Virus record (IMG/VR): IMGVR_UViG_3300036715_002535
Span: 32,001 to 96,000 of that record
Reading direction: 5' to 3' (one strand)
Source of the DNA: a virus
Length of the DNA: 64,000 bases
In this document: piece after piece, positions 3,903 to 62,250 of the stretch
Layout: each line of letters starts with the position of its first letter
Numbering within the stretch: position 1 is the stretch's first letter
The notes under the pieces: generated by a model
The model's input: only the letters and a program-made list of their open reading frames with translations
Told to the model about the DNA's origin: nothing
Database searches by the model: none
Made by a program: the position numbers and the translations under genes

Positions 3903-4103
3903 GTGAAATTCAAAGTTGTAGGAACTCGGAAGGTTGGAACTTGGGTAGTTCACCATGGCCCCATGAACATCGACAAGTTCAAGTCTGCAATGGATTCTAT
4001 CTTCGAAGAGTTCAAGAAGGAACACGAAGACAAGGAACTCTCATTCGATGACTGGATGCTCCGGTTTGAGAAGTGGCTCCGCAAGGAGGGACTTCTCCAG
4101 TGA
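3903..4103 (+). CDS. hypothetical protein (N-terminus KFKVVG, weak match to KLRIxA)
   Basis: Coupled ORF in operon. Confidence 0.6.
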   Translation: MKFKVVGTRKVGTWVVHHGPMNIDKFKSAMDSIFEEFKKEHEDKELSFDDWMLRFEKWLRKEGLLQ

Positions 4104-4489
4104 AGCTTCGAATCGTCGCCAACCTCAAAAAGTCCACAGCGGAAATCCAATACGACTATATTGGTGGACCAAATGATGGCGACTGGATCTTCGATGTGGT
4201 TGATTCCCATCTCGAGGGTGGTTACGAAGTACCTGCCAGATTGCACGGTCACCCGGATTCCTGGGCACCTGCAGAAGGTAAAAATCCAACGGTTGATGCA
4301 ACTCTTCACCTTTGGGTGTGGCCTGAAGAGAAGCAGAACGTAGAGCCGGACCCCAACCGTCCAGATTACGTGATTGAAATCAAAGACGATCGAATCGTTC
4401 CAGATCGCGGTAAATATTACCCTAAAGGTGTGGAAGACTTTATCTACGAAACGATCATTCCAGGAATCATTCAAAAGGGTCTTCGATGA
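4100..4489 (+). CDS. hypothetical protein, KLRIxA N-terminal family
   Basis: GTG 4100 after AAGGAGG; begins MKLRIVANLKKS. Confidence 0.7.
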   Translation: MKLRIVANLKKSTAEIQYDYIGGPNDGDWIFDVVDSHLEGGYEVPARLHGHPDSWAPAEGKNPTVDATLHLWVWPEEKQNVEPDPNRPDYVIEIKDDRIVPDRGKYYPKGVEDFIYETIIPGIIQKGLR

Positions 4490-4836
4490 AACTCCACATC
4501 AAAGCCAAGTACGTAGCCAAGTCCCCTCGCAAGCCCAAGTGGGACCCTTCGATCAAGCACAAGAAGGAAACCAAGGTCATCCTACCTGACATCCAGATCA
4601 AGGGGATCTACCAGGACCTCGTGGCCGATGTGGTGCTGGATCCAACCTCCGGCGGTTACGATGCCGTGGTGGAGATCATGGGCACCAAGGTCAAGGGCTG
4701 GGGACTGAAGATCAAAGACGCGCAGAAGGCTCTGATCGAGAACGTTGAAGAGCTTTCGAAAGAGCTGGGTTGGGACAAGGCTCCCACGACTGCTGGAATG
4801 AAGGGCATCACCATCATCTTCCGCTACCACGAGTGA
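4486..4836 (+). CDS. hypothetical protein, KLRIxA N-terminal family
   Basis: ATGA overlap; begins MKLHIKAKY. Confidence 0.7.
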   Translation: MKLHIKAKYVAKSPRKPKWDPSIKHKKETKVILPDIQIKGIYQDLVADVVLDPTSGGYDAVVEIMGTKVKGWGLKIKDAQKALIENVEELSKELGWDKAPTTAGMKGITIIFRYHE

Positions 4837-5144
4837 TCCGCTGGTTCTGGCTTCTACTTGCAACGGCTCTTGAGGTCTTCGCAGATTATCTTTTGAAGCG
4901 TTGGTCTCTGGGAGCTGGAACCAAGTTTGCGATCTCTGGTTTCCTAATCTACGGAATCGGCGGTATCGGTTGGGGTTACTTGCTGCGGCATGAAACTCTT
5001 CAACGTGCCATTGTTCTGTTCGTTGCTGTAAACGTATTCGCGGTCATTGTAATGGGCCACTACGTCTTTGGCGAACGTATGTCGATCAAGGAGCTTGCTG
5101 CCGCCATTCTGGTAGTCCTAGCGGTAGCTTTGACAGAATATTAA
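4833..5144 (+). CDS. SMR/DMT family small membrane transporter
   Basis: GTG overlapping upstream stop; ~103 aa, four hydrophobic helices, membrane Glu in LLLATALEV at position 14 as in EmrE, FGE motif. Confidence 0.75.
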   Translation: MIRWFWLLLATALEVFADYLLKRWSLGAGTKFAISGFLIYGIGGIGWGYLLRHETLQRAIVLFVAVNVFAVIVMGHYVFGERMSIKELAAAILVVLAVALTEY

Positions 5145-5157
5145 TTCTTCGGAATTG

Positions 5158-5188
5158 CCCTTGACATTTTTATTGTCAAGGGTATATT
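5158..5188 (+). promoter_or_regulatory. Class I palindromic promoter copy
   Basis: CCCTTGAC-atttttatt-GTCAAGGG-TATATT. Confidence 0.9.
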
Positions 5189-5205
5189 TTTATCTGGAGG
5201 GTTTA

Positions 5206-5436
5206 ATGTTCCGAAACGTTCCCAGGAAGCAAGGACAGAAGACGCCCAAGCCGAATCGGGATCCTCTCCGCGCCATCGTTGGTCGGGAGATGAGGGAACT
5301 GAGCCCTGGTGGAACGAGCGTACCCCATGAGATCCTTGAGTGTGGGCATGCTCAGCTCCCTGTCGAGGACTTCATTGGTAAGACCAATGCCGTGCGGCGC
5401 CGTTGCTGGCAGTGTGGGAGAAACGATGGGAAGTAG
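5206..5436 (+). CDS. hypothetical zinc-binding protein
   Basis: ATG 5206 after GGAGG; LECGH...CWQC. Confidence 0.65.
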   Translation: MFRNVPRKQGQKTPKPNRDPLRAIVGREMRELSPGGTSVPHEILECGHAQLPVEDFIGKTNAVRRRCWQCGRNDGK

Positions 5437-5672
5437 GGTCATCGAACTCTCCGAAAAAGATAAGATCCGCATCTGCCGGGACCATCTCAGCAAGCTTGCA
5501 ATGATTCACCTGCGCCGTATGGAGAAGCAGTGCGGAATTGCTGACGATGAATTGCTTTCCAAGAAGTGCTATTTCTTTTACAAGGTCTCGGATCTGATCG
5601 AAACCAATTCGGAGCTTCGTAAGAGGGTTTTCAAGAAAGCCTTGGCGAAGCGCCTTTCCGATTCCTGTTACA

Positions 5673-6326
5673 TTGACTACTGAGGTCACCGTGAAACTTC
5701 TCGGCAACGGAATCTTCTCCTGGGGAGCGGAGGAGCGGAGGAGTAACCGCTATGGGTCATTCAACCTCTGTAGTGAGTCCTACAAGGGAGAGACCCCTGG
5801 CAAGGCGCCAGAGTTCACCTCGGATCTCCACCGCCTCGTCCACAAGCGGGTGAAGCTGATGGTTCGGGTCACCGAAACTCGGCAGAGCGGTCACGTTGGG
5901 GACCTGGCCCTGAGGATCAAGCCCACGACTCCTGAGGTCGGCCAAGAGTTCATCCTGGGCGTGGGCATTCTTCAGCTCGAGCCTTGCTCCTGGGATTCCC
6001 TTTCCAGTATCGCCCTGATTCCCAAGGACCGACGATCTGATCTGTGGATCGATCCCAGGATCCTCTACCAGATCCATGATCAAACTGTCGAGCTCTACGG
6101 GGAAGAGACCGAAGAGGATTTCCACGAAGCTCCTGGGATCGAATTTGAAGAGGGTGCTATCTCTCTTGGCGAGATCGGAATTCAGGCCAAGAAGATCTGT
6201 GCCATTTCAATTCCACCCAAGATCAAGGAAATGGGTCGGGGTATGCTTGCCGTCACCTATGAAGCACCTGCCGAAGGAACCAAGATGAGGAAGGCTTCAG
6301 ATGGCCGAATCACTTGGGAACCTTAG
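5673..6326 (+). CDS. hypothetical phage protein
   Basis: 217-aa ORF in operon. Confidence 0.65.
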   Translation: MTTEVTVKLLGNGIFSWGAEERRSNRYGSFNLCSESYKGETPGKAPEFTSDLHRLVHKRVKLMVRVTETRQSGHVGDLALRIKPTTPEVGQEFILGVGILQLEPCSWDSLSSIALIPKDRRSDLWIDPRILYQIHDQTVELYGEETEEDFHEAPGIEFEEGAISLGEIGIQAKKICAISIPPKIKEMGRGMLAVTYEAPAEGTKMRKASDGRITWEP

Positions 6327-6842
6327 TAAATTCTTCAACACCCGGTTATCTAAAGTGCCAGAAACTGGCAATTCTACTTACGAGGTCACAGTGAGACTTC
6401 TTTGCGTTCTACAAGGTCATCGGTTTGAGACCCTCCGAGAAGAATGGATCAAGCCAGAAGATCCCAAGGGATTTACCTCCCTCCTTCGGTTCGATGAGTG
6501 CCGCCATTGCCACGATGTGCGAGCGACCATCACCCACCCCGAAGATCACAAGTCACGCTGGAGCATCGCCAACCGCGTGGATCATCGCACCATGACCGAC
6601 GACGAGAAGGGAATGGCACCAGCATGACACGAGCAGAGAAGGTCGCGGAGCTCCTGGGTTTGGAGCACGGATTCCACTACTCCCACATCATTGGAGATGT
6701 CATCTGTGGTGTGAAGACTGATGGTGAACCCTTAGTCAAGGATCCCAAGATCTACGACTGGCTTGGAAAGAACAAGCTGAAGCTCCAGATTACCTGCCCA
6801 CGTATCGGCTTCGAGAACATTACGGTCGAAGACGATAAATAG

Positions 6843-6873
6843 CCCTTGACATTTTAATCGTCAAGGGTATATT
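6843..6873 (+). promoter_or_regulatory. Class I palindromic promoter copy
   Basis: CCCTTGAC-attttaatc-GTCAAGGG-TATATT. Confidence 0.9.
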
Positions 6874-6892
6874 AGTGGGAAGGAGGTAATCC

Positions 6893-7045
6893 ATGCGTTT
6901 CCTTTTCACTCTCTTGCTGATGGCAGCTTGCACAGTCGCCGGTTACCAGTACGGAGTCAATCCCAAGTTCAATCAGAAGGTTCGCGAGAACGCTTACAAG
7001 GCCAAGGTCGCAACCAAGGCCAGCATCGACAAGATCTTCTCATGA
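6893..7045 (+). CDS. Small membrane/lipoprotein-like protein (50 aa, not in ORF track)
   Basis: AAGGAGG RBS; MRFLFTLLLMAACTVAGYQYG...IDKIFS; stop overlaps next ATG. Confidence 0.7.
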   Translation: MRFLFTLLLMAACTVAGYQYGVNPKFNQKVRENAYKAKVATKASIDKIFS

Positions 7046-7284
7046 CCGCAAAAGAAGAATTCGCAAAGAAGTTCGGGATCACCCACCCATTCGTGCTGTC
7101 TCAGAAGAGCCGGTGCGATGAATGCAGTTTCTGGCGGGAGAACTACGAACCTGGCACTCAGTGCGCCGAAGGGCACCAACCCCGCTTCTACAAGCGTGGG
7201 ATGCTCAAGCCCGGTTGCATGAGGGTCTGCGAAGACTTCGATCCGATTAATCCGCCTGAAGGCGCCATCGTACATCCCATCTGA
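7042..7284 (+). CDS. hypothetical Cys-containing protein
   Basis: ATGA overlap start MTAKEEF. Confidence 0.6.
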   Translation: MTAKEEFAKKFGITHPFVLSQKSRCDECSFWRENYEPGTQCAEGHQPRFYKRGMLKPGCMRVCEDFDPINPPEGAIVHPI

Positions 7285-7291
7285 GGTTCCC

Positions 7292-7609
7292 ATGCGTCTT
7301 GCAAGTCCTTCCACCAAGTGGTTCCGCAAGTGGACAAAGAAGCATCTTTCCTGTGGTGGTGGGTTCCGCTCACGGCAGGAGAGACAGGATCTCATGTTCC
7401 GCGCTGCCGAACTCTATCGTTTGGGTTCGACTCCTGAGGCTGCAGGCAACGCGACTGCCAAAGAGCAGTTGCTAAGAGTGGCCTACGATGTCGCACAGCT
7501 TCGTGGAAGTCTCTACTTCGGCAAGAAGAACTGGTCGATGGCGAAGTGGAATGAGATCCCCTATCGTGGGGACATGATTCAGTCACAACTCCCGGGGTTG
7601 GAATGCTGA
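7292..7609 (+). CDS. hypothetical protein
   Basis: GAGG RBS, operon context. Confidence 0.6.
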   Translation: MRLASPSTKWFRKWTKKHLSCGGGFRSRQERQDLMFRAAELYRLGSTPEAAGNATAKEQLLRVAYDVAQLRGSLYFGKKNWSMAKWNEIPYRGDMIQSQLPGLEC

Positions 7610-8064
7610 AGAACGTAACATCTATCAATCCAGAAACCATGAACTTGCTGAATAAGCAAGTCCTGATCACAACGAATCGCAACTCGAAGTACATCGGGAA
7701 GTTGGTTCGCTTGGGGAAAGAGAAGTTCGTCCTCATGAAGGTCACTGGTCTTTCTAAGGCCGGCACCTACAAGTTCATGGAAAGCAATAACCGATCTGGG
7801 AAACGGGAATTCAACTATTCCAGCACCATCGGAATGGTAGATGCCACGAACTACAAGGAACCTGAGTACGAAATCTTAGGCCGTCCAGTCGATCGTGCCG
7901 ACGCCTGCAAGATTCTTCGAGTGCGAGATCCGGAATTGATCGTCTTCCGTCACCTTCTGGAATGCGATTCCCCTGAGCAGTTCTTCGAAGATAACAAAAA
8001 TCTGGAACCGCAAATCTGGTTCGATACCCTGCGGTTCGTATTCATTCCAGTCAAGAGGTCGTAA
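7603..8064 (+). CDS. hypothetical protein
   Basis: Coupled ORF. Confidence 0.6.
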   Translation: MLKNVTSINPETMNLLNKQVLITTNRNSKYIGKLVRLGKEKFVLMKVTGLSKAGTYKFMESNNRSGKREFNYSSTIGMVDATNYKEPEYEILGRPVDRADACKILRVRDPELIVFRHLLECDSPEQFFEDNKNLEPQIWFDTLRFVFIPVKRS

Positions 8065-8756
8065 TGCCCCTTCAGAAATTTTTCAATCTGGGTCTCCCCA
8101 AGTGGCCGTGCCTGGTCGTCGTGGGTTCGAAAGTCACCAAGGAACAGGCACAAGAGATCCTCGTTCGTACCGACAGCTGGCGCTTCATGTCAAACGACAA
8201 GGCGCTGGAGAAAGACCTTCATACTCTCGCAGGTCTTTCAGAGCCCTGGGAACCGGAACGGACACTCGCAGAGAGTCAAGCTGCCTGGGAAAAGGACGAA
8301 GAGGTCAAGAAGGTCCATGGAGTCCTGGAGCTCGAGTACCTGACCAACTCCCAGATCGTTTCCTGCTACGTGGGTGGTCCGCATGGCTGGTGCAACTGGG
8401 AAGGTGACATCTTCTGCAACAACTTCAACATTGGCAAGTGGCCTTCTACCGAAGAGGTCTACAACGAATGGTGCCTCATCGCCAAGACCTTCCCTTACCT
8501 GGATCTGCGTTGCCAGCTCATGAATGCGGAGTCCTGCGAAGAGGATCTTCGGCCGGTGATCGAGTACGTGGTGAAAGATGGCAAGGTCGAGATGCTGATT
8601 CCGACCAAGACAATCACAATTCCGGTTTCTCCAAACTTCGAAGAGCAGGCAATGAAGATTGCCTACATGTCCTCCAGAACGAGGGAGTTCGGTTGCACGA
8701 TGAGCGACTTCGCAACTGCCCTGGCTTTGACCCGTTTAAAGGTTTCGGAAGCCTAG
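8064..8756 (+). CDS. hypothetical phage protein
   Basis: 230-aa ORF, TAATG coupling. Confidence 0.7.
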   Translation: MPLQKFFNLGLPKWPCLVVVGSKVTKEQAQEILVRTDSWRFMSNDKALEKDLHTLAGLSEPWEPERTLAESQAAWEKDEEVKKVHGVLELEYLTNSQIVSCYVGGPHGWCNWEGDIFCNNFNIGKWPSTEEVYNEWCLIAKTFPYLDLRCQLMNAESCEEDLRPVIEYVVKDGKVEMLIPTKTITIPVSPNFEEQAMKIAYMSSRTREFGCTMSDFATALALTRLKVSEA

Positions 8757-9157
8757 GGTCTACCATGGTATGTTTCGCACTCAAAGCGGTCCCTACCGGC
8801 GAAAAACGTGGAGTATGGGCATGATTAGCGAACCCTTCTATGAAGCACTGAAGGTCGCCGCTGGTCCGGTCTCTACTCCACTTTTTTACGTGGATGGGAA
8901 TCCCCGAGCTATTTCCGAAACGATCCGGTAAGGTCGAAGCTCTTTTGAGCGTAGTTCGAGAGAAAAATTGGTCCACCCAGACCGCCCTTCATGGTGAGAG
9001 ATACTTCTTTCGACTGGAAAACGAAAGCCACCGCTTCACCGTTGTGATTGTTCAAGAAGATTTCGATCGAGCTCAGTACGATATCCTGGCCGAGGTTCTT
9101 TATCGTCTCTTACTCTCCTTGGACAATCTTCCGTTATAATTGATCAAAGGTGATCCC

Positions 9158-9484
9158 ATGAAGCTGATTGTCAAAGCGAACCTGAAGAAGTCCGAAGTGG
9201 CTTGCGACATCAACATCAAGAGAGGGGACAAGGTCAAGTCCTACGATTTCCCTGAAAATCTTGAGTTGGATCCAGAACGTGCTGAGCGAAACTACGTGGT
9301 AGGCACCGTCACAGACATCGTAGAGAAACATGATTGCCAGCACTACAAGATTCTGGTCGAATACCGCGTAGTCAGTGGGGAGAAGGAAGAGACCCCTACT
9401 GGTCAGCTTCTCTTCGTTTACCCACCGGTCAATGGAACACCGACTTGGACCGATAAGACAACTTGCGGAGTTGTGAAAGTCTAA
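9158..9484 (+). CDS. hypothetical protein, KLRIxA N-terminal family
   Basis: CGTTATAAT at 9132-9140, AAAGG RBS; begins MKLIVKANLKKS. Confidence 0.7.
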   Translation: MKLIVKANLKKSEVACDINIKRGDKVKSYDFPENLELDPERAERNYVVGTVTDIVEKHDCQHYKILVEYRVVSGEKEETPTGQLLFVYPPVNGTPTWTDKTTCGVVKV

Positions 9485-9852
9485 AGACCATCTCCAAAGT
9501 TCGTGGAGGAGGTCTTACTGATTGCTATGAGCATGTAATTCTTGCAATGGCTCAAGCCTACGAACTCGTTCTTGGGTGGATAGTACTCCAGAAGCTGTTG
9601 AGCTTTGCTCGGTACTCGATGTACTGGGACATGGCACGGATTCGATCATCCGTTGACATCTCATTGAGCATTTTGTTCAGCTCACGATCCGCTGGATCCA
9701 TGTTCCCACCTTCGGGAGGTATTGAGGTAGCAGAATGTATCCGGAGTAAAGTCCGAGGATTCCTAGAACTCCACTAAAAGTAACCGGAGACACAGCTTCA
9801 AATCCTAGCCGACGAACAATGAATCCAAGGAGCACGCAAACTAGAAAGATTT

Positions 9853-10203
9853 TCAATGGAAGAACCTCAGCATCTCTGGCTGGTTGGGGAGTAGCCTAAG
9901 ACTCTGAAGGTAGTTCAAGAATGCTAGGTAAACTATTGTTGCTTCATTGGGACCTTGATCGACTTTGGTTCCTCGAACGTAGAACCCTTCAGGTGTGATG
10001 CGAACGTACTCTATGTCTGCGATTGTAAAAGAAATAGTCCTCTTCTTCTCTTCATCGGTCAAGGCATCCTGAATTGGAGCTTGCTCGTAGCAAATCGGAA
10101 ACTGGCCCATCGGTTCAGGTTCTGGTTGCCACTCGAACCCATCCAAAGCTGGTTGCACGTAAATCGGTTTGGGCCGTTCCTGGACGTACAGGGTCTGTGT
10201 CAT
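9853..10203 (-). CDS. hypothetical protein
   Basis: Coupled to 10200..10484. Confidence 0.55.
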   Translation of the reverse strand: MTQTLYVQERPKPIYVQPALDGFEWQPEPEPMGQFPICYEQAPIQDALTDEEKKRTISFTIADIEYVRITPEGFYVRGTKVDQGPNEATIVYLAFLNYLQSLRLLPNQPEMLRFFH

Positions 10204-10484
10204 TTCAGAAAATCCTTCTTGTAGGCTTCCGCCGTAGCCGGATCAACAGGTTGAAACGGACTTTCAACTGGTGGTTCATTTGTGGTCAAATCCTTGGTCC
10301 ACACCTTAGGAGCTTCCAGATAGACTGGCTCTTTATCCTCGAGGAGGGATAAGGCAAAGATCATCCCATTCGCCATTCCATGGAAGTAGGGATCGAAGTC
10401 CCAAGTTCCTTTCATGCAGGAGATCTCAGTCATCTTGCGAAGTTCTTCGATTTTACTCTTTAGAGTGGGCTTCGCTTTGGTCAT
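10200..10484 (-). CDS. hypothetical phage protein
   Basis: ORF with WDFDPYFHGMANG motif, RBS present. Confidence 0.6.
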   Translation of the reverse strand: MTKAKPTLKSKIEELRKMTEISCMKGTWDFDPYFHGMANGMIFALSLLEDKEPVYLEAPKVWTKDLTTNEPPVESPFQPVDPATAEAYKKDFLK

Positions 10485-11031
10485 GACTTCCCCTTGTACA
10501 CGTAGTTGATCCGAACCTCTTCACCCTTTTGTAGAACTGGATCGATCGTTATCAACCCATAGTCGTCTAGTTCTATTTCAACGTTTTTGTAAAGGAATGG
10601 CAGGCGAAACCCTAGAAACTTTCTTGGGATCTGCGCCTGGACCTTCACAGAACGTCCGTGGTCTCTAGAGTGACCTTGACGGTAACGGGAGGCTGATCCG
10701 GATTCGGGAAGACCCCGCGTGGGAAATAGAGACTCAGTTTGGGTTCCCCATCGTTTTCATACACGTGGGTACCTTTCGTTGATTTACCCAGCTTGAGAGA
10801 AGTAGAAAGGATCTGCATCATGCCCTCTTGGTGATAGTGATTGCGTGTTCTCGAGCGAATTGATGGAGTTCTTGTTCAGAATCGAAAGGCCCGTACTCAT
10901 GCAACTTCTCTTTAGTGTTGCTGTTGTACCCCTTGAGAACGTAGTGATCGATGTAGTGAGGTTGAAGTAGATTGTTCTCGCTGTGCCAGTATATCGGTAC
11001 AATCACCCAAGTCTCATTCGGGCTGATTCTC

Positions 11032-12665: not shown

Positions 12666-12696
12666 CCCTTGACAATTAATTCGTCAAGGGTATATT
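12666..12696 (+). promoter_or_regulatory. Class I palindromic promoter copy
   Basis: CCCTTGAC-aattaattc-GTCAAGGG-TATATT. Confidence 0.9.
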
Positions 12697-14579: not shown

Positions 14580-16391
14580 CTAAGTAGAAAAGGGATCTGA
14601 CATTGGTATTGCTAAGGAGATAACCCGGTCTTTCTCTCTAAACATTAGTCCTAGATTTTCCAGTTTACGTAAAATTCCATCTACATCTCGGTAAGTAAAT
14701 CCATTCGAAAGAAGAATGGGATCCTCCGAAAGGCGGTCAAGTGAAACGATGTCCAAGCAGAGATGGTAGATGCGGCTTTCGTTTTCGTCCAAGGAGTACC
14801 GCGCGGATCTACCCGGTCTCTCATCCTCGACTACTACCTTCTCCCCAAGTCTGTAGTATCTTAGGAGCTTCTGTCCCTTCTTTTGCCGGTAGTTCTGGAT
14901 CCATTCCCTCACCACGCGAGTGAGTTCTAAACTGTAGGGTGCAGAATCAATCCCATCATAGTTGAACTTTGTCGCAATTCTATAGAGCTGTTCTCTATCA
15001 AGCGGGTACAGGAACTGGAAGATTGGTTCTGGATCTCGAATCACAATTCCATATTTCTCCGGGAAGTCGAAGAGCTGGGATCCCCTGGATAGGTAGTATT
15101 CGATCACACCATTCGGAGGATAGAGATGCTGAAGTTTGTAAGCTAGCTCGGCCATTCGCAGGTACTCAGTAGGATCCTCGGAATGGAATCCACGAATGAT
15201 GTTCCAAGTCAAAGGAATGTCCAACCACTTGCAGAACTTCAAAAATCGAACGTTCTGGATTGCTGAAACACCCTTAGAGATAAGCTCGAGGATGGGGGTA
15301 CTAAGACTTTCAATCCCTGGCTGAAGTACCCGCGCTCCGGCCCTCTTTAAAAGTTTCAGATCTTCTAGACCAGTGTTACTCTTGAGTTCGAAGAAGAGCT
15401 CTAGGTTGTACTTCGACTCAATCAACGATTCGAGAATCTTAGTCCCGTCCTTGTAATCGAGGATACTGTCGACTGCGTAGAACTTGTACACCCCATGCTG
15501 ATCTGCAAGACGAAGAACATCGGCTACAACCTTCTCCCAGTTCTTCCTTCGGTAAGGAGTAGTGAAGACATCTTCCGCACAGAATGTGCAAGGGTGCTTG
15601 AAACCCCACCAGCAACCACGACCGGTCTCGTACTGAATGTATACGTCCCGCTTGACCTCATCCAGTTTCAACCTATCGATACGTTCAAAGAACTCCTCGT
15701 GATTGGGATCCTCGAATTGATCACCCTCGACCTTGTTCGACAGGTCTGCAAAGTAGATTCCAAGATCCGAACGAATGGACGCACAGGGATGAGAGGTCAA
15801 ACCTGCCTGCAACCCCTTTACGAACTCCGGTAGAGCTACCTCAGCATCACCATGCCAGATCGCATCCAACCATCCGAAGTTTTCAAGTAGGGCTTCTCCT
15901 ACACCATGGACAAGTCCCGGTCCACCAAAGATGACCTTGATACGAGGATTCAGCTCTTTGATTCTCTTCGCCAGAACCAGGGAAGCAACGAACTGAGCAA
16001 GCACTATTGTGAAGCCCACAATCTTAGGATTTGATTCTACGATCTCAAGAGCCAGCTTCTCCACGAATTCCGGGGTTGCCGCTTTGATGTCGAAGTACAG
16101 ATCAGGAAGAATCTGCTGAAGGGTCTCAGAGTCGTCTATCCCTTTGAAGGTGGGGTTAGTGAAGACCCACTCCGCGTACTCCATGCTCTGACTGATCTCT
16201 AGGTACTGTAGCCTACTGGTTACAAGCTTTCGTTCGTACAGGAAAGAGTAGTAATCCAGGTTCGCGGAAAGAGACCCAACCTTGAGACCCGCTTTACTTA
16301 GAACGGTATGAACGATTCCAAGTTGAATACTTGGGTCCAGAGTAACCCACGGCATCGAAACCGTTAGGAAATCTAGATCCTTTGGGATCAT
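14580..16391 (-). CDS. Cobalamin-binding radical SAM C-methyltransferase, RiPP-maturation type (TIGR03975-like)
   Basis: VSMPW...PSIQLG B12-binding N-domain, IFGGPG, ETGRGCWWGFKHPCTFC variant rSAM cysteine motif, VDSIL, QPGIESLS, WNII.GF. Confidence 0.85.
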   Translation of the reverse strand: MIPKDLDFLTVSMPWVTLDPSIQLGIVHTVLSKAGLKVGSLSANLDYYSFLYERKLVTSRLQYLEISQSMEYAEWVFTNPTFKGIDDSETLQQILPDLYFDIKAATPEFVEKLALEIVESNPKIVGFTIVLAQFVASLVLAKRIKELNPRIKVIFGGPGLVHGVGEALLENFGWLDAIWHGDAEVALPEFVKGLQAGLTSHPCASIRSDLGIYFADLSNKVEGDQFEDPNHEEFFERIDRLKLDEVKRDVYIQYETGRGCWWGFKHPCTFCAEDVFTTPYRRKNWEKVVADVLRLADQHGVYKFYAVDSILDYKDGTKILESLIESKYNLELFFELKSNTGLEDLKLLKRAGARVLQPGIESLSTPILELISKGVSAIQNVRFLKFCKWLDIPLTWNIIRGFHSEDPTEYLRMAELAYKLQHLYPPNGVIEYYLSRGSQLFDFPEKYGIVIRDPEPIFQFLYPLDREQLYRIATKFNYDGIDSAPYSLELTRVVREWIQNYRQKKGQKLLRYYRLGEKVVVEDERPGRSARYSLDENESRIYHLCLDIVSLDRLSEDPILLSNGFTYRDVDGILRKLENLGLMFREKDRVISLAIPMSDPFST

Positions 16392-17887: not shown

Positions 17888-18542
17888 TTACTTTCCTTTC
17901 AACCAAGAATCAAGAGGAAATTTCTGTCCTGTACGATGATCCAGGATAAGATTGTCCTGAAACCGGTAAGTTCGGATCTTGTCTCCCCTTTGCCCAGAGC
18001 CAATCTTGTCTTTTCGTTCTCGATTGATGTCTGCGTGAGCATTATTCTTTACCAGCTCCTGAAGTTTCATCTCCAACAGCTCCAATGCAACTACACGATT
18101 CCGGATCTGAGACCTGCCATCGATCCGGACTTGAAGACCGGTCGGCTTGTGGGTCGCAATAACACAGGATTCTACCTTGTTGCGGTGCTGCCCTCCAGGA
18201 CCACTGCCCCGGGTAGTTCTAACGTCTATATCCCGCAAATTTAAAGATGCCGCGCGGTTCTGGAGCTCATAACAGGCCACGGTTATGGTAGAGGTGTGAA
18301 CTCTACCCTTCTTCTCTGTAGGTGGAATACGCTGGAAGCGATGTCCTCCACTCCCTTGAAGAAATTCACCGGCGCTATCACCCTTGATGAGAAGGGAAGC
18401 GAAGCCAGGCGCCTCTTCTAAGAGTTCGGTCTCAAAGTCCCCTCCGCTCCGTCCGACGTAAATAGGCTTTCAGTTGATCCCTGACGAGTAGGACTGCATC
18501 GTCCCCACCCTCAGCAGCTCGAATCTCAAGAATGAGTTCCAT
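17888..18542 (-). CDS. Class-1 peptide chain release factor-like protein (RF1-type PxT, lacks N-terminal domain), programmed +1 frameshift at 18437-18432
   Basis: ATG 18542 (GGAGG RBS) MELILEIRAAEGGDDA...RRGL then TGA; +1 frame gives GGHRFQRIPPTEKKGRVHTST, GSGPGGQHRNK, KIRTY..DHRTG; about 217 aa joined. Confidence 0.88.
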
Positions 18543-18560
18543 GCTGCACCTCCTTGAGCA

Positions 18561-18571
18561 ATTATAACCCC
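18561..18571 (-). promoter_or_regulatory. Class II promoter (GGGGTTATAAT)
   Basis: Upstream of the release-factor RBS; same core as other class II sites. Confidence 0.65.
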
Positions 18572-18586: not shown

Positions 18587-18617
18587 GCCTTGACAATTAA
18601 ATCGTCAAGGGTATATT
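18587..18617 (+). promoter_or_regulatory. Class I palindromic promoter copy
   Basis: GCCTTGAC-aattaaatc-GTCAAGGG-TATATT. Confidence 0.9.
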
Positions 18618-23697: not shown

Positions 23698-24366
23698 TTG
23701 GCAAAGGCAGTCGTTATCCTATCCGGCGGAATGGACTCAGTCGTTCTAGCCTACTTCCTCAAGAACCAAGGCTACGAACTCAGTTGCCTGTCGTTCAACT
23801 ACGGTCAGCGCCACGCGAAGGAACTCGGGTTCGCGGAGCAGTGCGCGAAGGATGTCCGGTCCCCTTGGCACCTGGTCGATCTCAGCACCATCCAGGGTCT
23901 TCTGCCTGGTTCATCTCTCACTGACAGCTCGATCGAGGTTCCCGAAGGGCACTTCGAAGCGGAGATCATGAAGGCCACGGTAGTGCCCAATCGGAATGCG
24001 ATCATGCTTTCGATTGCGTGGGGCCACGCAGTTGCCATCGGAGCGGATGTGGTAGCCTTTGGCGCTCACGCGGGTGACCATGCTATCTACCCTGATTGCC
24101 GTCCAGAGTTCTGGGAGAAGATCGAAGCCGGGTTCAAGTCTGGCAACGAGGGCTTTGGCAATCCAGAACTTCGACTGTACCCACCTTTCATCAAGATCAC
24201 CAAGGCGGATATCACCAAGCGTGGGTACGATCTGGGTGTCAACTACGCGTACACCTGGAGCTGCTACAAGGGTGGGGAGAAGCACTGTGGCAAGTGTGGA
24301 ACTTGCGTGGAGCGGAAGGAAGCCTTCGAGCTGGCAGGTGTTCCTGACCCAACGGTGTACGAATGA
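23698..24366 (+). CDS. queC: 7-cyano-7-deazaguanine synthase
   Basis: LSGGMDS, YGQRH, VPNRNAI, YPDCR, TWSCY...HCGKCGTC.ER. Confidence 0.95.
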   Translation: MAKAVVILSGGMDSVVLAYFLKNQGYELSCLSFNYGQRHAKELGFAEQCAKDVRSPWHLVDLSTIQGLLPGSSLTDSSIEVPEGHFEAEIMKATVVPNRNAIMLSIAWGHAVAIGADVVAFGAHAGDHAIYPDCRPEFWEKIEAGFKSGNEGFGNPELRLYPPFIKITKADITKRGYDLGVNYAYTWSCYKGGEKHCGKCGTCVERKEAFELAGVPDPTVYE

Positions 24367-33972: not shown

Positions 33973-34356
33973 CTAGAATTTCTGGTTGTGAAGATACAAA
34001 GCGAAAGCTTTGTCTTCTTGATCAATGTGTTCAACCAACCACTCGATCAACCATTCAATCGTTTTCTCTTCTAGATTCTCTGTATGAATCAACGCGAGTT
34101 TTGCTTTCATTCCCTGATGCAGAAGAACATGTTTCGTTAAGTCCGGGAACTTAGCACGTTTCATCATTTCTTCTTCAAGAAGGAAATGTTCTTTTGTGTA
34201 GTCATTCAGAAATTTTAACAGTCCAGGAATATCCGTATTTGCGTGAATATGGACTGCGTTGAATAATCTCTCGACATGACCAAATAATTCTCTATGTTGA
34301 GTATCGATATCCTCAATAAAAGTATCCCACTCTGGTCGCCAGGAGAGTTCAATCAT
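33973..34356 (-). CDS. Bacteriohemerythrin (second copy)
   Basis: W.PEW....EDID.QH, HF.LEE, H...H, WL.EHI.QED. Confidence 0.88.
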   Translation of the reverse strand: MIELSWRPEWDTFIEDIDTQHRELFGHVERLFNAVHIHANTDIPGLLKFLNDYTKEHFLLEEEMMKRAKFPDLTKHVLLHQGMKAKLALIHTENLEEKTIEWLIEWLVEHIDQEDKAFALYLHNQKF

Positions 34357-34754
34357 ACCTTAAAGATCTTTCTGACAGCCTTTTGAACTGCCGTGGAAAG
34401 TTCCTTGGGAACCTTCAAGTCAATGAGGGCATCCAGGATCAGGGTATCCCACTCGTCCGGGCTACCATCAGTATCCCCGATGTGCTTCTCTACGCGCTCC
34501 ACCACTTTCTTTGCCCAGACATCCGCAGGAGTAACCTTTGGAGTCTTGGGAGTGACTACGCGGAGGGTACCAGAGGGCATAGTGAACTCACCCAGTCCAC
34601 CCTCAATAGGCTTCAATCGAAGCTTGCCATCTGGCTTGACTTCGAGAACCTCGTATTGTACTTTCGTACCTGGCTGGGAAACAATGTCACCCACCTCGAA
34701 AACTTCGGGACCGCGCTTCTTGGCGGCTACTTTTGCGATGACATGAATCTTCAT
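34353..34754 (-). CDS. hypothetical protein, KLRIxA N-terminal family
   Basis: GGGGTTAAGAAAT upstream (34769-34781); begins MKIHVIAKVAAKK. Confidence 0.65.
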   Translation of the reverse strand: MKIHVIAKVAAKKRGPEVFEVGDIVSQPGTKVQYEVLEVKPDGKLRLKPIEGGLGEFTMPSGTLRVVTPKTPKVTPADVWAKKVVERVEKHIGDTDGSPDEWDTLILDALIDLKVPKELSTAVQKAVRKIFKV

Positions 34755-44728: not shown

Positions 44729-45061
44729 TCAACCCTGGAGCATATCTACACGGATGTACTGAGGTGCCTTGGGCTTGGCAGCTTTCTTAGAAGTTTCCTT
44801 CAACCTAGCTTGCTTCGCTTTCTTGTCGTGCTGTATTGCCATCTTGGTGTGGTGAGACATTTCTGAATCTTTACCAATTTTCTCGTAAAGGGTTGCTGCA
44901 ATTCTATGTAGGTGGGCAGCTTTGACATGGTCCTCAAACGAATTCTCTTTATCGGCTTTAGTTGTAGCTTCATTCGCTTTGATGGTAGCAGCCGCAGCTT
45001 TGTCCTTGTAGGTACCAGAGGTCAATTTTTCCGGCACGGTTGCTTTGACATGGAGCTTCAT
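44729..45061 (-). CDS. Lys/Ala/His-rich protein, KLRIxA N-terminal family
   Basis: GGTTAGAAT upstream (45078-45086), GAGGT RBS; begins MKLHVKAT. Confidence 0.65.
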   Translation of the reverse strand: MKLHVKATVPEKLTSGTYKDKAAAATIKANEATTKADKENSFEDHVKAAHLHRIAATLYEKIGKDSEMSHHTKMAIQHDKKAKQARLKETSKKAAKPKAPQYIRVDMLQG

Positions 45062-45711
45062 CTGCCACCTCTATTCTATTCTAACCGACATTCGTGAGGT
45101 TAAATCTTTGAGGGCAAAATGAAGCGTGTAATCATAGTTGCACTTCAGCAATACCTGAACAATGGACACGAACCTCGCCAGTCTGGAGCCCTCTGCAAGA
45201 ACTGGCGCCAGGTACGAGAGATCCTGAGGAATGAATACAAAGACTGCAAGGTAACCATCTTCCGCCAGAAGTGGGCTCTACCTTACAAAGACTTCTGGGT
45301 CAAATCTGCGAGGAAGGAAGTTACCATCTATCTCAAAGGATTCAAGAAGTGAGAGCATGGTTTCGTAGACTCGGATGTTCTTTGGGATTTCATTCTTATT
45401 GTTTCCACATGGAATACTATCCTTATGAAGAGGGTGGAATCCAAGGAACATGTGCTTGGTGGATCCACTCTTGTTGCGACACTCCCCTAGAACCTGTTGA
45501 GTACAAGGTGACCAATGATTCTGACGCCTGAAGTAAAAGCTGAAATCGATAAGCTATCCATCTACCAGCTACTCCAAAGGAACCGCTTCGCACCTGCAGG
45601 AGACGAAATCTTCGAAGGTGAATCTGGTACCTACTTTCTGAAACGTATGTGCGAACTGCGTGATGCAAACCCTGCAGCGTACTCTCGTGCATCCCGAGAC
45701 TTGGGTTGGGG

Positions 45712-57367: not shown

Positions 57368-57453
57368 GGGGGGACCTCAGGGGTATAACCGGAGTGGAGA
57401 GGGTTTTCGCCTTGAACGAATAAAGAGAGGAGAAGGTAGACCTTGGATCGTTT

Positions 57454-57492
57454 GGAGTAACCCCTTTGAAAGTGGGGATGCCTGGTTATAAT
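57454..57492. promoter_or_regulatory. Divergent class II promoter element
   Basis: GGAGTAACCCCTTTGAAAGTGGGG...GGTTATAAT between gyrA and the 57510 gene. Confidence 0.65.
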
Positions 57493-57509
57493 ATGGGATG
57501 GAGGGTTCG

Positions 57510-57995
57510 ATGACCAAGATGCGTATTCAGGCAGCAGTAGTCAAGACCAAAACATTCAACTACAAGGATGAGGAACAGGAGGCAAAGGCTTGGGCTACGA
57601 AGATGAAGGAAAAGGGTAACGTTGTCTTCGAGGATGACAAGGGTTCCGATACCTACTGCTTGTACGCTGCACCTTCCAAGAAGGATATTCAGGATTGGTG
57701 CGAGGAGCAGGAGCAGGAGGTCAAGTTAGTTTCTTTCACGGCTAGGGTCCAGGTTGCCTCCAACACCTCCATCTGGGCAATCTTACGGCAGGATGCTTTC
57801 GGGCAGGGGGATGCCATTACTCTAGTAACTGCGTTGAACGAGCAGGAAGCATTTTCAATCTACGCTATTGAGAGTGCAGGAAGCATAGCGCCCTCAAACG
57901 TTTCTGAGGAACAAAACAGGGCGGTGCTGGAAGAATTTTATGGGGACTACAAGGATGGTTACTACAAAGTTCTACCAACGGAAATGATTGGGTAG
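57510..57995 (+). CDS. hypothetical protein, KLRIxA N-terminal family
   Basis: GGAGG RBS; MTKMRIQAA; internal ARVQVAS. Confidence 0.65.
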   Translation: MTKMRIQAAVVKTKTFNYKDEEQEAKAWATKMKEKGNVVFEDDKGSDTYCLYAAPSKKDIQDWCEEQEQEVKLVSFTARVQVASNTSIWAILRQDAFGQGDAITLVTALNEQEAFSIYAIESAGSIAPSNVSEEQNRAVLEEFYGDYKDGYYKVLPTEMIG

Positions 57996-58374
57996 TCGGC
58001 TCGTTTGGAGTATATGCTAGAGGGTTTCGCCCAAGAAGAACCTACCTTCATCGCGGGAGAGGTTCAGGAAGAACTTCTGGCCATCTTTTCGTTGGAAGCC
58101 AAGGAGGTAGCGTGCTTCGCCGGGGGTTGGTCAGTAGGGACCTGGAGTAGCTTCCGATCAAGGGATACGTGGATCAGTTCGAAGGGTCCGCCGTTCATGT
58201 TTAGTTCCTTTGTTCAGGGTGCGATCAGTTGGGTCCTAGGCTTTCAGTGCCCTTGCCAGGTTTGACGACGAGCTTGGATTCCAGCCACGCATCAAACTTT
58301 GGGAATCGTTCGCATAACTTCTCAAGAATCCAGATGAGGGGTGTTGCGAAGTTCTCTTCCATGGGGACCTCGTG

Positions 58375-58428
58375 GGGAGTAACCCTTTTGAAAGTGGGGT
58401 TACAATTACTTATGGTGAAGCTACGTAT
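58375..58428 (+). repeat. 54-bp promoter-plus-start repeat, copy 1
   Basis: GGGAGTAACCCTTTTGAAAGTGGGGTTACAATTACTTATGGTGAAGCTACGTAT, identical at 59576-59629, partial at 58913-58953. Confidence 0.92.
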
Positions 58429-58864
58429 TGCATCCCAAGGTGAGATTAATAGGATCATGTGGACCCTCGGTCATCTGCGGAAGGCAGTGAGGGGGCTTCA
58501 CAAGTACGAGTCGTCTGTCAATGTGGAGGGGAAGGTAGCTCTCAAGGCAGCGATGGGAGTTTTGTTGGAAGTAATCAAGCAGGAAGAGGGTAAGATCGAG
58601 AAATTAAAGTTCGAGGGTGAAGAACATCCTCGAACCTGGAGCATTCGGAAAACGGTAAAGAGTCTGAGTTGGACCCTTCGGAAGTTGAAGTTTGCTTCCA
58701 ACGATCTACAGATCTATCTGGGTCCACACCTTCTGGGTAAGACCACGATAGGTAAGGATGCCATTCTGCGTGCGAAGGCCATCATAGATCAAGCTGTGAA
58801 TGAGATGCAGGAGAAGGTTAAGGCTCTCGAGGGTGAGCTGTGGAGAGAAGTCTTTCCTGATTAG
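58412..58864 (+). CDS. helical hypothetical protein, KLRIxA family (leaderless)
   Basis: ATG 5 nt after TACAAT; MVKLRIASQ; internal duplication (WTL..L...GK.A...A....Q). Confidence 0.65.
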   Translation: MVKLRIASQGEINRIMWTLGHLRKAVRGLHKYESSVNVEGKVALKAAMGVLLEVIKQEEGKIEKLKFEGEEHPRTWSIRKTVKSLSWTLRKLKFASNDLQIYLGPHLLGKTTIGKDAILRAKAIIDQAVNEMQEKVKALEGELWREVFPD

Positions 58865-58935
58865 TAGGTGCAGGTGTAGCACGAGAACAGTTGGTAATCG
58901 TTCTTCAGTAGCTGAAAGTGGGGTTACTATTACTT

Positions 58936-59502
58936 ATGGTGAAGCTACGTATTCAAGCAAGTGTCAAGGCGAACATGTGGGATGATGCTTATCACCCAAG
59001 TAAGCTTGGTCCCTCTTTGACCATCAACCCTTGGCAGGAAGATCAGTTCTGGGTGGCGCCAAAGGATCCAGGTATTCCCGAGGAAACGAAGCAGCATCTG
59101 AGGGAGTGGTTGCAATACAACAACAAGAGTTTGACAGGCGAGGATCTCAATTTCTTGATGCGTAAGTACTCTTACTCCGGGACGATGTTTCGAGGGGTGG
59201 GGTTTCAGACCATGGAAGAGATGGAGGAGTTTCTATCCACGTTAGGGAATGAGAGGCATCCTACCTCGTGGTCCAAGTCTTTTGAGGTAGCCAAGGAGTT
59301 CGCTTCGGAGGGGCAGACTCAATCCTCCCTTCCCAATCATTGGTTGGTTCTGAAGTATAAGGGCAAGGCATTCGACTTGCACAAAATGCATTTGAAGCTC
59401 TCTCCACCCAGTCAGAAGAAGAAAGATCGTGGGGTGGTGAGGGAGCAGGAACTAGTGATCCCTGCAGGATCCTACAGCTTCGAAGTAGTGGATAAGGGTT
59501 AG
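58936..59502 (+). CDS. Putative R-S-E type ADP-ribosyltransferase, KLRIxA family
   Basis: MVKLRIQAS; MFRG, PTSWSKSFEVAKEFA, REQELVI. Confidence 0.65.
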   Translation: MVKLRIQASVKANMWDDAYHPSKLGPSLTINPWQEDQFWVAPKDPGIPEETKQHLREWLQYNNKSLTGEDLNFLMRKYSYSGTMFRGVGFQTMEEMEEFLSTLGNERHPTSWSKSFEVAKEFASEGQTQSSLPNHWLVLKYKGKAFDLHKMHLKLSPPSQKKKDRGVVREQELVIPAGSYSFEVVDKG

Positions 59503-59575
59503 TCCTGCGTGCAGGTAGGGCAATATATTGCAGCCAGGGGTGGAGCCGCATGTGGTGCAGGCGCCTTGGAGGGTT

Positions 59576-59629
59576 GGGAGTAACCCTTTTGAAAGTGGGG
59601 TTACAATTACTTATGGTGAAGCTACGTAT
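59576..59629 (+). repeat. 54-bp promoter-plus-start repeat, copy 2
   Basis: Identical to 58375-58428. Confidence 0.92.
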
Positions 59630-60203
59630 CAAAGCCGGTCTATCTAATAGGGTCTACCATTTCACAACTCTTTCCTCGAAAGCATCTCAATTAGTTGTGG
59701 TGGATGTTCAGCCAGTACATCGTGGGTTCATTCACTTTGATGTTCCTAGTTTGATGAAGAAGTTCGAGGACTATGGACGGGTGCTCATTGTCTATAATGG
59801 GGCAGAGTTAGGTTACGAGGATAGTCCAAATACCATTCAAGAGTGGTATTTGGAGGAGGGTATGAACGAAGAGGTTCATTTAGAGTTTAAAGATAAGGCT
59901 TACGGTTTTCTTCGTGGGGCAATGGATACTGGAGTTGCTGACGAGAACATCGTTGGAGCAATCAAGGTAATGCTCGAAGAAGACTTATCAGATAGCAGGG
60001 AATTATCTACCGAGATGCAAGAGCAGTTTGGTTTGAGTGAAGATACAGCTATCAGCATTCCGGATGATCTGATAGATGCCTTGAAGGATTTCAATGGGGC
60101 AGATATTTGCGGTGGTGGAGATAACGATTGTTTAAGAGAAGTGGAGTTGCTAGCTGAAGGTGCTGGCTTAAGATTCAATCGTTTGTATCGATTTGTTTAT
60201 TAA
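59613..60203 (+). CDS. Cysteine-hydrolase/isochorismatase-like protein, KLRIxA family
   Basis: MVKLRIKAG; LVVVDVQP, DK.YG, GG...DCL.E pattern. Confidence 0.45.
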   Translation: MVKLRIKAGLSNRVYHFTTLSSKASQLVVVDVQPVHRGFIHFDVPSLMKKFEDYGRVLIVYNGAELGYEDSPNTIQEWYLEEGMNEEVHLEFKDKAYGFLRGAMDTGVADENIVGAIKVMLEEDLSDSRELSTEMQEQFGLSEDTAISIPDDLIDALKDFNGADICGGGDNDCLREVELLAEGAGLRFNRLYRFVY

Positions 60204-60494
60204 ATACGCGGTTCCTCGTGCCCTTTACGATTGGGGTGGTACGAATCCCACCGAGCCAGCTTCTTGATATGCATCTGCGAGCATAGCAACAGCTTTTTCA
60301 ATTTTCTCTTTGAGTGAAGGGATTGCTTCTACAAGAGGGTGGCTAGTTACATGTTCCTCAATCGTGCAAATGATAACGTGTAGACGATCCACAACCTCGT
60401 GGACATGACCGTCATCTAGACCTTCAGGCAGGGGAGGGAAGGGTGGCATCATCTGAGTCCTACAATAACTGCGTATAAGTATCGGGGTTCTGGA

Positions 60495-60860
60495 TCATAG
60501 TAGGTCGTGCTCTTGGCAATACTCTAGAGCAGCGAATACGGGGCCAGTGATCCACGCTTGTTCAATTTCCTGGGAGGTCCATACTCTTCCAGCATTGTCT
60601 GGTTTGTCTCCCAGGTTCTTCATGGCTTCGCAGATAGGGCAATAGTCTCCAGTCAGGAGATAGGGTCCACCCAGTTCCACAGCTCGATTGGTGATCATCC
60701 AATGGCAAGACATCAGGGGATCGTAGGGTGCCTCACCTCCTTTCAGTTCTGTCTGTAGGCGTGCTGCAGCTTCGCTACCACCTTGGGCTACGAGGTGTGA
60801 CATACCGGTGGTTTCGATTGACTGGCGTAGGGCGGTCCAATGATATTCACAGATCTTCAT
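60495..60860 (-). CDS. hypothetical protein
   Basis: AAGGA RBS; YDPLM...CPIC. Confidence 0.6.
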   Translation of the reverse strand: MKICEYHWTALRQSIETTGMSHLVAQGGSEAAARLQTELKGGEAPYDPLMSCHWMITNRAVELGGPYLLTGDYCPICEAMKNLGDKPDNAGRVWTSQEIEQAWITGPVFAALEYCQEHDLL

Positions 60861-60901
60861 GTGTTGATCCTTTAATCGTTGCTGGAGGACGATGATCGCG
60901 A

Positions 60902-61501
60902 CTAGAGCTTCTCGATAGCATCACGAAGATCAGTTACAGGATTCGAAATTTCAGTATTCTTGATCCCCTCGGTTTCAATCTTCATGCCAATGCTGATGGC
61001 CAGAGCCGCAAGTCCAAACCACCCTTCAGGGGATGTGGGTTGAACTGGGTAAATGCGTTGTTGCCAGAAGTCTGGTGTTCCACTATCAAGGATATGCAGT
61101 GGAACGTATTTTTCTAGGCTTCGAATGCAGTCTTGCAAGCCAAGGGTTACATCCTCAGTTTGATAGTCTCCAAAGAAGATATTGTAGGTACTTCCAAAGC
61201 CTATCTTTCGACCATCGAAGATCTGTCGGTACAACCTCGTCCAAGAATCGTGGGAGTACTGATTGTCCGGCATGCCTGGAATGATCAACTGTTCTACCAA
61301 GTTCGCAGGGAAACCCAGTCCCAGAAGAATCGTTTTGGCTAGCAGGTCCGGGTACTGGGTTACCAGAACGCATTCATCGCGTTCGAACCTTACTTCGTAC
61401 CCATTGCCTACCTTCTTGATGTGAACGAATCGAAACACTTCATCGTTTGGTAGTCCGTGGATTCCACATTTTGGCGGAACCCAGCTTTCGCTGCGCTTCA
61501 T
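60902..61501 (-). CDS. hypothetical protein
   Basis: GGAG RBS; 199 aa. Confidence 0.6.
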   Translation of the reverse strand: MKRSESWVPPKCGIHGLPNDEVFRFVHIKKVGNGYEVRFERDECVLVTQYPDLLAKTILLGLGFPANLVEQLIIPGMPDNQYSHDSWTRLYRQIFDGRKIGFGSTYNIFFGDYQTEDVTLGLQDCIRSLEKYVPLHILDSGTPDFWQQRIYPVQPTSPEGWFGLAALAISIGMKIETEGIKNTEISNPVTDLRDAIEKL

Positions 61502-61659
61502 AGTAACTCCATACGATAGTTTAAGGGTCCGTCGTGTCAGACCTGAATAGTTAACCCTACGTTCCTTGTTCTAGCAGGAGGGTTCTAATGGGTACCTCAC
61601 GGTTGTAGGGATTAACCTTGAAAGAGGGGTTACAATAGATAGATAGATGGAGGATTCCA

Positions 61660-62250
61660 ATGGGTAAGCTCAATTGTAGCAGGGAAGAAGGACCGGGTGT
61701 AAAGAAGCTTCGTATCCGTGCTGGTGTGCCTAAGAAGGCGGCACTCGTGGGCATGCCAGTCCCAGGCTGGTTCATCTTCTACAATCTGGGAAGCGGTAAC
61801 TGGGAGGTCGAGGCAGCGCCCAATCCAAATACTGCGAGCCGGGAAGAACTGCAGAAGGTGATGGAAGACTTCAAGGAGTTTGGGTACAATGACAATATCA
61901 AACGGCACGGTCATAGCCGTACCTTCTATGTAGAGATTACACCAGAGATGGTTCAGGATTGGGCTTCGGAAGGTGTGGAGAGCTGGGAAGATGATATGGT
62001 CACAGATGCCATTCAAGGACTTCCAAACACGGATATTCGAAGAATTTTAAAGCAGAAGGGCTCCAAGAAGGCATCTGAGCTCAGGATTGTATCTGGGAAG
62101 AAGGACCAGCCCAAGAAGCGTGAAACCTTTGAGGAAGCAGTCGAGCGCGGGTACAAGGAATCCAAAGAGGTATTCGAGAAGCTTCAAAAGAAGCCGGTCC
62201 TGGTATCCGATGGGTCTACTACTTCGGACTTGGGATCTCAGCAATCCTAA
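61660..62250 (+). CDS. hypothetical protein with KLRIRA motif near N-terminus
   Basis: GGGGTTACAAT at 61626-61636, GGAGG RBS; VKKLRIRAG, internal ELRIVSG. Confidence 0.6.
   Translation: MGKLNCSREEGPGVKKLRIRAGVPKKAALVGMPVPGWFIFYNLGSGNWEVEAAPNPNTASREELQKVMEDFKEFGYNDNIKRHGHSRTFYVEITPEMVQDWASEGVESWEDDMVTDAIQGLPNTDIRRILKQKGSKKASELRIVSGKKDQPKKRETFEEAVERGYKESKEVFEKLQKKPVLVSDGSTTSDLGSQQS

Follow-up and report, generated by a model that had tools for sequence, protein, structure and literature searches.

In phage T4, a capsid-targeting sequence (CTS) of 10 N-terminal residues is carried by diverse internal proteins, is sufficient for their packaging and is removed by the protease gp21 (PMC3012670, PMC9026906); the gp21-type proteases of T4, phiKZ and SPN3US cut after Glu (PMC9026906, PMC10052503). 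In phage P1, the first ~30 residues of DarB form an N-terminal packaging signal (PMC9024508), and ADP-ribosyltransferase (ART) and GNAT domains have been described in proteins that phages inject along with their DNA (PMC7824862). Here, we examined a short N-terminal peptide, called the tag below, that recurs on many proteins encoded by IMG/VR record IMGVR_UViG_3300036715_002535, a contig of 111,836 bp. The 64,000-nucleotide stretch at bases 32001-96000 of this contig is referred to as the window, and positions are given either in the window or in the whole contig (genome). The tag is a real, selected, portable and unstructured N-terminal peptide resembling an address. The first-pass annotation, made from the letters of the window alone, had proposed a modular N-terminal signal on unrelated proteins, and this proposal was upheld by the enrichment of the tag at N-termini, by selection at the peptide level and by the unrelatedness of the proteins behind it.

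Gene calling over the whole contig yielded 264 proteins, among which 18 carried a clean tag and another three to five a degenerate one; the tagged share was about one protein in 12, or ~8% of the phage proteins. The pattern K[LIM][RHK][IV]x[AS] was found in the first 12 residues of 14 of the 264 called proteins, against 0.18 expected from its internal frequency (3 in 30,882 residues), an enrichment of ~80-fold at N-termini, so that the recurrence seen in the window was not at chance level when N-termini were searched genome-wide. A 14-column position-specific scoring matrix (PSSM) built from the members gave 18 proteins scores of 17.8-34.3, and the next best position in the proteome scored 7.6. 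Eight clean members lay outside the window, including those at genome starts 3037(-), 30973, 96331, 96809, 96994, 102744 and 109103. The degenerate N-termini were MKFKVV (window 3903; genome 12357), MKFHVA (14098), MKIFVK (2178) and MTKLTIRIAA (11652); three head-module genes began with degenerate tags, and the protein at genome 12357 was a true paralogue of the clean member at 109103. Two kinds of internal copies had been suggested to be further processing sites. Both exist (ARVQVAS at residue 78 of the 57510 protein, ELRIVSG at residue 140 of the 61660 protein), but neither was among the top PSSM hits, and they did not stand out from chance. In a control scan of unrelated phage and metagenome loci totalling ~450 kb, one tag match was obtained and no other common N-termini were found. 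A strict degenerate DNA pattern for the tag had 0 hits in IMG/VR. A loose one had 53, as by chance, of which six fell at open reading frame (ORF) starts, and no locus held several; the five records with such hits that were checked all lacked the portal.

The tag consists of seven residues, behind which x-[L/V]-K-K is frequent; its full consensus was (M or M+small)-K-L-[R/H]-[I/V]-x-A-x-[L/V/Y/F]-[K/A]-[K/S], and K, L, R/H, I/V and A held most of the information. The alternation of hydrophobic (L, I/V, A, L/V) and basic residues would fit the pattern of an extended amphipathic strand. Synonymous codons varied freely (Leu as CTC in 5, CTT in 4, CTA in 5 and CTG in 1; Arg as CGT, CGA and AGA; Ala as GCC, GCA, GCG and GCT), which indicated selection on the peptide and not on the RNA; an RNA-level signal was excluded by this variation. 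The invariant Lys stood at position 2, or at position 3 when V, T, G or A came second. As Met-aminopeptidase exposes small second residues (rule in PMC10052503), one residue would precede the Lys in the mature protein in 17 of the 18 members. This constant mature offset is suggestive, not proven, because four of the seven M-x-K cases were MVKLRI and possibly share ancestry. Conservation stopped by about residue 12 (alignment A3), ruling out a common N-terminal domain. A Sec, Tat or lipoprotein signal was also rejected, as the tag has no hydrophobic core, RR or Cys. Neither Glu nor Asp occurred at tag positions 1-9.

When the proteins were trimmed of the tag, BLASTP found no similarity among their bodies, and hhalign gave every pair a probability below 5% except 57510 against 61660 (22%); these comparisons agreed with alignment A3 and with the earlier view that the bodies are unrelated. 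The tagged proteins were 61-247 aa long, and no distinct isoelectric point was found for them. The longest, at genome 30973 (247 aa), belongs to a GNAT-related family. Its homologues at 96% and 81% identity retained MKLRIVARY-AKK, whereas 14 homologues at 27-43% identity had no tag, another start and a shorter N-terminus (alignment A1); the tag is, by these alignments, lineage-specific. An AlphaFold2 model built with alignment A1 showed a confident fold (mean predicted local distance difference test, pLDDT, 81.5), in which residues 1-11 had a pLDDT below 50 and no secondary structure. In this GNAT-like member, the model places the tag as a disordered appendage ahead of the fold.

The first-pass annotation had also identified one member as an ART, and this assignment was borne out in part. 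The protein at 58936-59502 matched phrog_832, the Alt-type 'RNA polymerase ADP-ribosylase' of PHROGs, with an E-value of 1e-5 over residues 64-184, and the R, S-x-S and E-x-E motifs could be read by eye as FRG, SWS and EQE; the same protein had no Pfam, PDB or tblastn match, and a single-sequence AlphaFold2 model was unusable (pLDDT 35). The proteins at genome 109103 and 12357 had a KMPT-N domain just under the Pfam threshold. The remaining tagged bodies were ORFans, and the 230-aa tagged protein at genome 96994 was an orphan among 1.8 billion representatives. The best explanation of this collection is that the tag marks small, fast-evolving accessory proteins, which would include an Alt-like ADP-ribosyltransferase and a GNAT-like acetyltransferase.

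The tagged genes were also tied to one promoter class. Class A promoters are palindromic, near-consensus sigma-70 sites of the form CCCTTGACA-N8-TGTCAAGGGTATATT, which recur about 20 times from 29.6 to 85 kb ahead of small genes and nucleotide-metabolism genes (for example at window 208-238, 5158-5188, 6843-6873, 12666-12696 and 18587-18617); as both the -35 element and the spacer fall inside the palindrome, it might serve as an operator too. Class B promoters are -10-only sites that read (G)GTTAnAAT or TAnAAT and frequently have a mirroring TAACC upstream; in random windows, such sites occurred at a rate of 2.7%. Of the tagged genes, 10/17 had TAnAAT in the 50 nt upstream, compared with 16/202 others (p 1e-6), and 8/17 had GTTAnAAT, compared with 2/202 (p 9e-9), whereas a class A (TTGACA) site preceded 0/17 tagged genes and 16/202 others. 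The earlier observation that GGTTAnAAT-like sites precede eight of the 10 listed genes, and that no TTGAC promoter immediately precedes any of them, was confirmed. Class B sites also preceded virion-module genes: they occurred before 7/27 genes of the terminase-to-tail block and 9/175 other untagged genes (p 0.002), and the terminase gene was preceded by GGTTATCAAT, which stands back to back with the promoter of tagged gene 3037(-). From this sharing of promoters, we infer that the tagged genes are co-regulated with virion genes.

In three members (58412, 58936 and 59613), the promoter and the start of the gene formed a near-identical unit without a Shine-Dalgarno site, comprising an inverted repeat GTAACCC...GGGTTAC, the -10 element and ATGGTGAAGCTACGTAT (window 58375-58428, 58913-58950 and 59576-59629). 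The metagenomic relative P0021 was recombinant at this unit. As the ATG of 58412 follows GGTTACAAT by 5 nt with no Shine-Dalgarno site, its mRNA is probably leaderless, and the same probably applies to the mRNAs of 58936 and 59613.

All 10 N-termini listed for the window were present, with the corrections that 4100 has a GTG start, that 9158 is an Ile variant and that the core of 61660 is displaced. The window begins its series with the degenerate gene 3903..4103 (+; 66 aa; MKFKVVGTRK), in which Phe replaces Leu and Gly replaces Ala. It is joined by 4100..4489 (+; 129 aa; (GTG)MKLRIVANLKKS; PSSM 29.8), whose body has no family, and by 4486..4836 (+; 116 aa; MKLHIKAKYVAK; PSSM 30.6), with a basic low-complexity start. 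The gene at 9158..9484 (+; 108 aa; MKLIVKANLKKS; PSSM 24.4) follows CGTTATAAT at 9132-9140, and its N-terminus, MKLIVKA, has Ile at the Arg/His position. On the minus strand lie 34353..34754 (133 aa; MKIHVIAKVAAKK; PSSM 22.9) and 44729..45061 (110 aa; MKLHVKATVPEK; PSSM 26.5), the latter with GGTTAGAAT at 45078-45086 on the same strand. The plus-strand group towards the end of the window comprises 57510..57995 (161 aa; MTKMRIQAAVVK; PSSM 26.0) with GGTTATAAT at 57484-57492; 58412..58864 (150 aa; MVKLRIASQGE; PSSM 17.8) with GGTTACAAT at 58398-58406; the ART-like 58936..59502 (188 aa; MVKLRIQASVKA; PSSM 34.3) with GGTTACTAT at 58922-58930; and 59613..60203 (196 aa; MVKLRIKAGLSN; PSSM 28.4), which has the 58412-type promoter-plus-start cassette with GGTTACAAT at 59599-59607. 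Last in the series, 61660..62250 (+; 196 aa; PSSM 29.2) has GGTTACAAT at 61628-61636 and can be written as MGKL-NCSREEGPGVKKL-RIRAGVPKK. Its ORF begins MGKLNCSREEGPGVK, with the K-L-R-I-R-A core from residue 16, and the gene at genome 96809 starts with an intact MGKLRIRAT; 61660 looks like a MGKLRIRA tag that received an insertion of 13 codons.

The contig, which is linear according to IMG/VR and 56% complete according to CheckV, is, by its gene content (terminase, portal, tail fibres and head maturation protease), that of an uncultivated large phage. Its terminase shared ~30% identity with the terminases of Erwinia and Dickeya jumbo phages. Close relatives were found in neither INPHARED nor IMG/VR: megablast of two 10-kb contig pieces against INPHARED matched nothing, and no relatives came up in IMG/VR when it was scanned with four proteins, namely the terminase, the ART-like protein, the portal-adjacent protein and a radical SAM enzyme discussed below. 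Other genes on the contig encode a tRNA nucleotidyltransferase (window 2130-3530, +; phrog_2244, 9e-75) and a transposase (L002:8356-9393, -; phrog_506, 4e-112).

The tag may serve as a head-targeting address for cargo in the manner of the T4 CTS, a reading that we regard as quite possible, if somewhat short of probable. Tagged proteins would be made from the -10-only promoters alongside the virion proteins. The extended, amphipathic and basic tag would then dock through its free N-terminus on a component of the assembling prohead, for instance the inside of the shell or a protein of the core or scaffold, possibly with the help of a classical-clade AAA ATPase for which the contig has a gene; BCS1-type AAA proteins of jumbo phages have been proposed to move proteins into heads (Iyer et al., PMC7824862). 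The head would thereby take up the cargo and deliver it along with the DNA, like the CTS and internal-protein system of T4, and new cargo genes would gain tag and promoter together through the repeated cassette of promoter plus first codons. Head loading is a plausible though unproven interpretation that has partial support, notably from the ART-like and GNAT-like cargo, from a gp21-type prohead protease and from a borderline tag-like insert in the portal-adjacent protein.

The head genes of the contig are relevant to this reading. A gp21-type prohead protease is encoded (phrog_18299, E 2e-40), 36% identical to the 'prohead core protease' of a Dickeya jumbo phage. The gene order was portal, a helical acidic protein of 289 aa, two small proteins, a homing endonuclease, the protease and an acidic protein of 234 aa, which appears to parallel the T4 order gp20 / gp67-68 / gp21 / gp22 (PMC9026906). 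The homing endonuclease gene (L001:10274-10939, +) is inserted among the head genes just upstream of the protease gene. The portal-adjacent 289-aa protein (genome 8540-9409, +), for which no match was found in the ESM Atlas, contains a tandem KNVRASLKKKA resembling tag positions 4-11 (compare RIVANLKKS and HIKASLKRA in tags). This element was present as a single copy in relatives at 83-92% identity and absent from those at ~45% (alignment A2), so by sequence it is a lineage-specific insert. Its score was borderline, being reached in 8/200 shuffled proteomes and equalled by an unrelated protein. With the full PSSM, the best non-member position was residue 32 of the portal, and the third best was the N-terminus of the gene after the protease.

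Several findings weigh against head loading. The tag has no prohead protease motif (L/I-x-E, with Glu at P1), and none of the portal and scaffold motif matches was significant individually. A major capsid protein was not recognisable on the contig, which covers ~56% of the genome; PDB sequence searches with the protease and with a candidate capsid protein of 358 aa gave no match. The tagged genes were dispersed among non-structural genes, and two of them (4100 and 4486) lay within an operon behind a TTGACA promoter. Class B also heads a non-virion operon, that of a release factor and the radical SAM enzyme, and probably drives the topoisomerase gene as well; because this class serves non-virion genes, a 'late' timing of the tagged genes can only be inferred. 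The suggestion that the tag is cleaved after its Ala was not supported, since the protease family cuts after Glu, and acidic residues are missing from the tag. The first Glu downstream of the tag was rejected as a cleavage site, with no consistent P3 residue or position.

A different partner could explain the same peptide. The tag could dock on, or be a substrate of, something other than the capsid, which we consider unlikely. The main candidate is an orphan B12 radical SAM C-methyltransferase of the type found with ribosomally synthesized and post-translationally modified peptides (RiPPs), acting for example at the conserved Ile/Val or Arg; the AAA ATPase, a deoxyhypusine-synthase-like enzyme, or the RNA polymerase, ribosome or clamp of the host are alternatives. 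The ATPase gene (L003:5113-6090, -; genome 101113-102090) adjoins a deoxyhypusine-synthase / homospermidine-synthase-like gene (L003:3939-5069, -; PF01916, 2e-25), the pair spanning genome 99939-102090. The radical SAM enzyme (603 aa, window 14580-16391, -) has Radical_SAM and B12-binding domains and scored 431 bits against NCBIfam TIGR03975, 'RiPP maturation radical SAM C-methyltransferase' (cut-off 282). No tblastn hit to it was obtained in the 50,697 phage records of INPHARED, nor were relatives found among genome contigs. Neither an NHLP nor a Nif11 leader was found on the contig and no obvious precursor adjoins the enzyme, while the tag offers an accessible, disordered terminus with near-invariant K, L, I/V and A. 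Because its operon, headed by the release-factor gene (window ~17888-18566, -), begins at a class B promoter, the enzyme would be made together with the tagged genes. On the other side, the nearest tagged gene is ~5 kb away and not adjacent, folded proteins of 61-247 aa would have to serve as substrates instead of short precursors, and known family members use long NHLP or Nif11 leaders. The enzyme may also act on another target, and a QueC gene is present in the phage as well (window 23698-24366, +; PF06508, 9e-63), which suggests 7-deazaguanine chemistry. The specific claim that this enzyme recognises the tag and modifies it there, which would imply C-methylation of ~8% of the phage proteins, enzymes included, is very improbable in our view.

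A decidedly unlikely alternative is that the tag acts as an N-terminal degron for an AAA+ protease, either of the host ClpXP type or formed with the phage AAA ATPase, which would shorten the time for which potentially toxic takeover enzymes are active. The ClpX N-motif-1 reads polar-T/hydrophobic-hydrophobic-basic-hydrophobic, to which the L-R-I of the tag is similar. The tag is also unstructured, terminal and basic-hydrophobic, at a constant distance from the free N-terminus, and the classical-clade AAA ATPase is at hand on the contig. ClpX recognises short N-terminal degrons of three classes, with the lambda O tag as one example (PMC12723719). However, no protease partner for the ATPase was identified, many tagged genes have strong promoters of their own, which fits abundance and not instability, and the link to the virion-type promoter class would be left unexplained. 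The least probable reading, that the common start has no peptide function and is a by-product of copying the promoter-plus-start cassette or of a need in translation initiation, including that of leaderless mRNAs, draws on the near-identical units at 58412, 58936 and 59613 and on the recombinant P0021, but it conflicts with most members, which have no upstream DNA in common and encode identical residues by different codons, with the several that lie inside operons behind ordinary Shine-Dalgarno sites, with conservation by amino-acid class (R/H, I/V) and not by base, and with the absence of the tag pattern, save for its one match, from the control DNA.

If head loading is true, the T4 device of a short address peptide with interchangeable payloads would have arisen here with a wholly different sequence and on a much larger scale, half a genome encoding at least 18 payloads, and with a promoter-plus-tag cassette ready for gene capture. 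It would also provide a sequence rule by which injected effectors and anti-defence proteins could be found in uncultivated phages, and a second very short (7-12 aa) tag for engineered protein delivery by phages. If instead the radical SAM enzyme or a protease reads the tag, a new layer of post-translational control in phage infection would be indicated; in the case of the radical SAM enzyme, RiPP-like chemistry would operate proteome-wide on full-size viral proteins. Under either reading, the tagged ORFan family is a defined and testable set.

Several known systems resemble the tag in part. The cargo-loading peptides of encapsulins are alternating-hydrophobic, extended peptides similar to the tag, although they are usually C-terminal, and the herpesvirus assemblin site, (V/L)-x-A followed by S, resembles the [I/V]-x-A of the tag, which is followed by S, N, T or G. 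A point of likeness to RiPP and TIGR03975 systems is that a maturase, here without a canonical precursor, and an unexplained common peptide occur in one genome; unlike RiPP precursors, the carriers here are full-size proteins, with no adjacency to the enzyme and no long leader. The N-terminal degrons of ClpX (PMC12723719) are likewise short, unstructured, terminal and basic-hydrophobic, whereas the tag is limited to one phage lineage. Polyvalent proteins injected with DNA (PMC5512222, PMC7824862) share with the tagged set ART, GNAT and KMPT-N (genome 109103) domains; there the domains are fused in a giant polypeptide, and here they would be carried by separate small proteins, each with its own tag. 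In P1 DarB, an N-terminal signal suffices for head entry of an anti-defence cargo, but this signal is ~30 residues long on one very large protein, and not a short motif that recurs on many proteins. The T4 CTS (MKTYQEFIAE, on the internal proteins IPI-III, with Alt) differs from the tag in sequence, the tag being basic and unrelated, with no Glu and no L/I-x-E cleavage motif, and in its handful of carriers, compared with at least 18 here on 56% of the genome. Both are short (~7-12 aa) N-terminal peptides on unrelated small proteins, and in both systems an ADP-ribosyltransferase or a protein like it is among the carriers, a gp21-type protease is encoded and the variable cargo genes have their own promoters.

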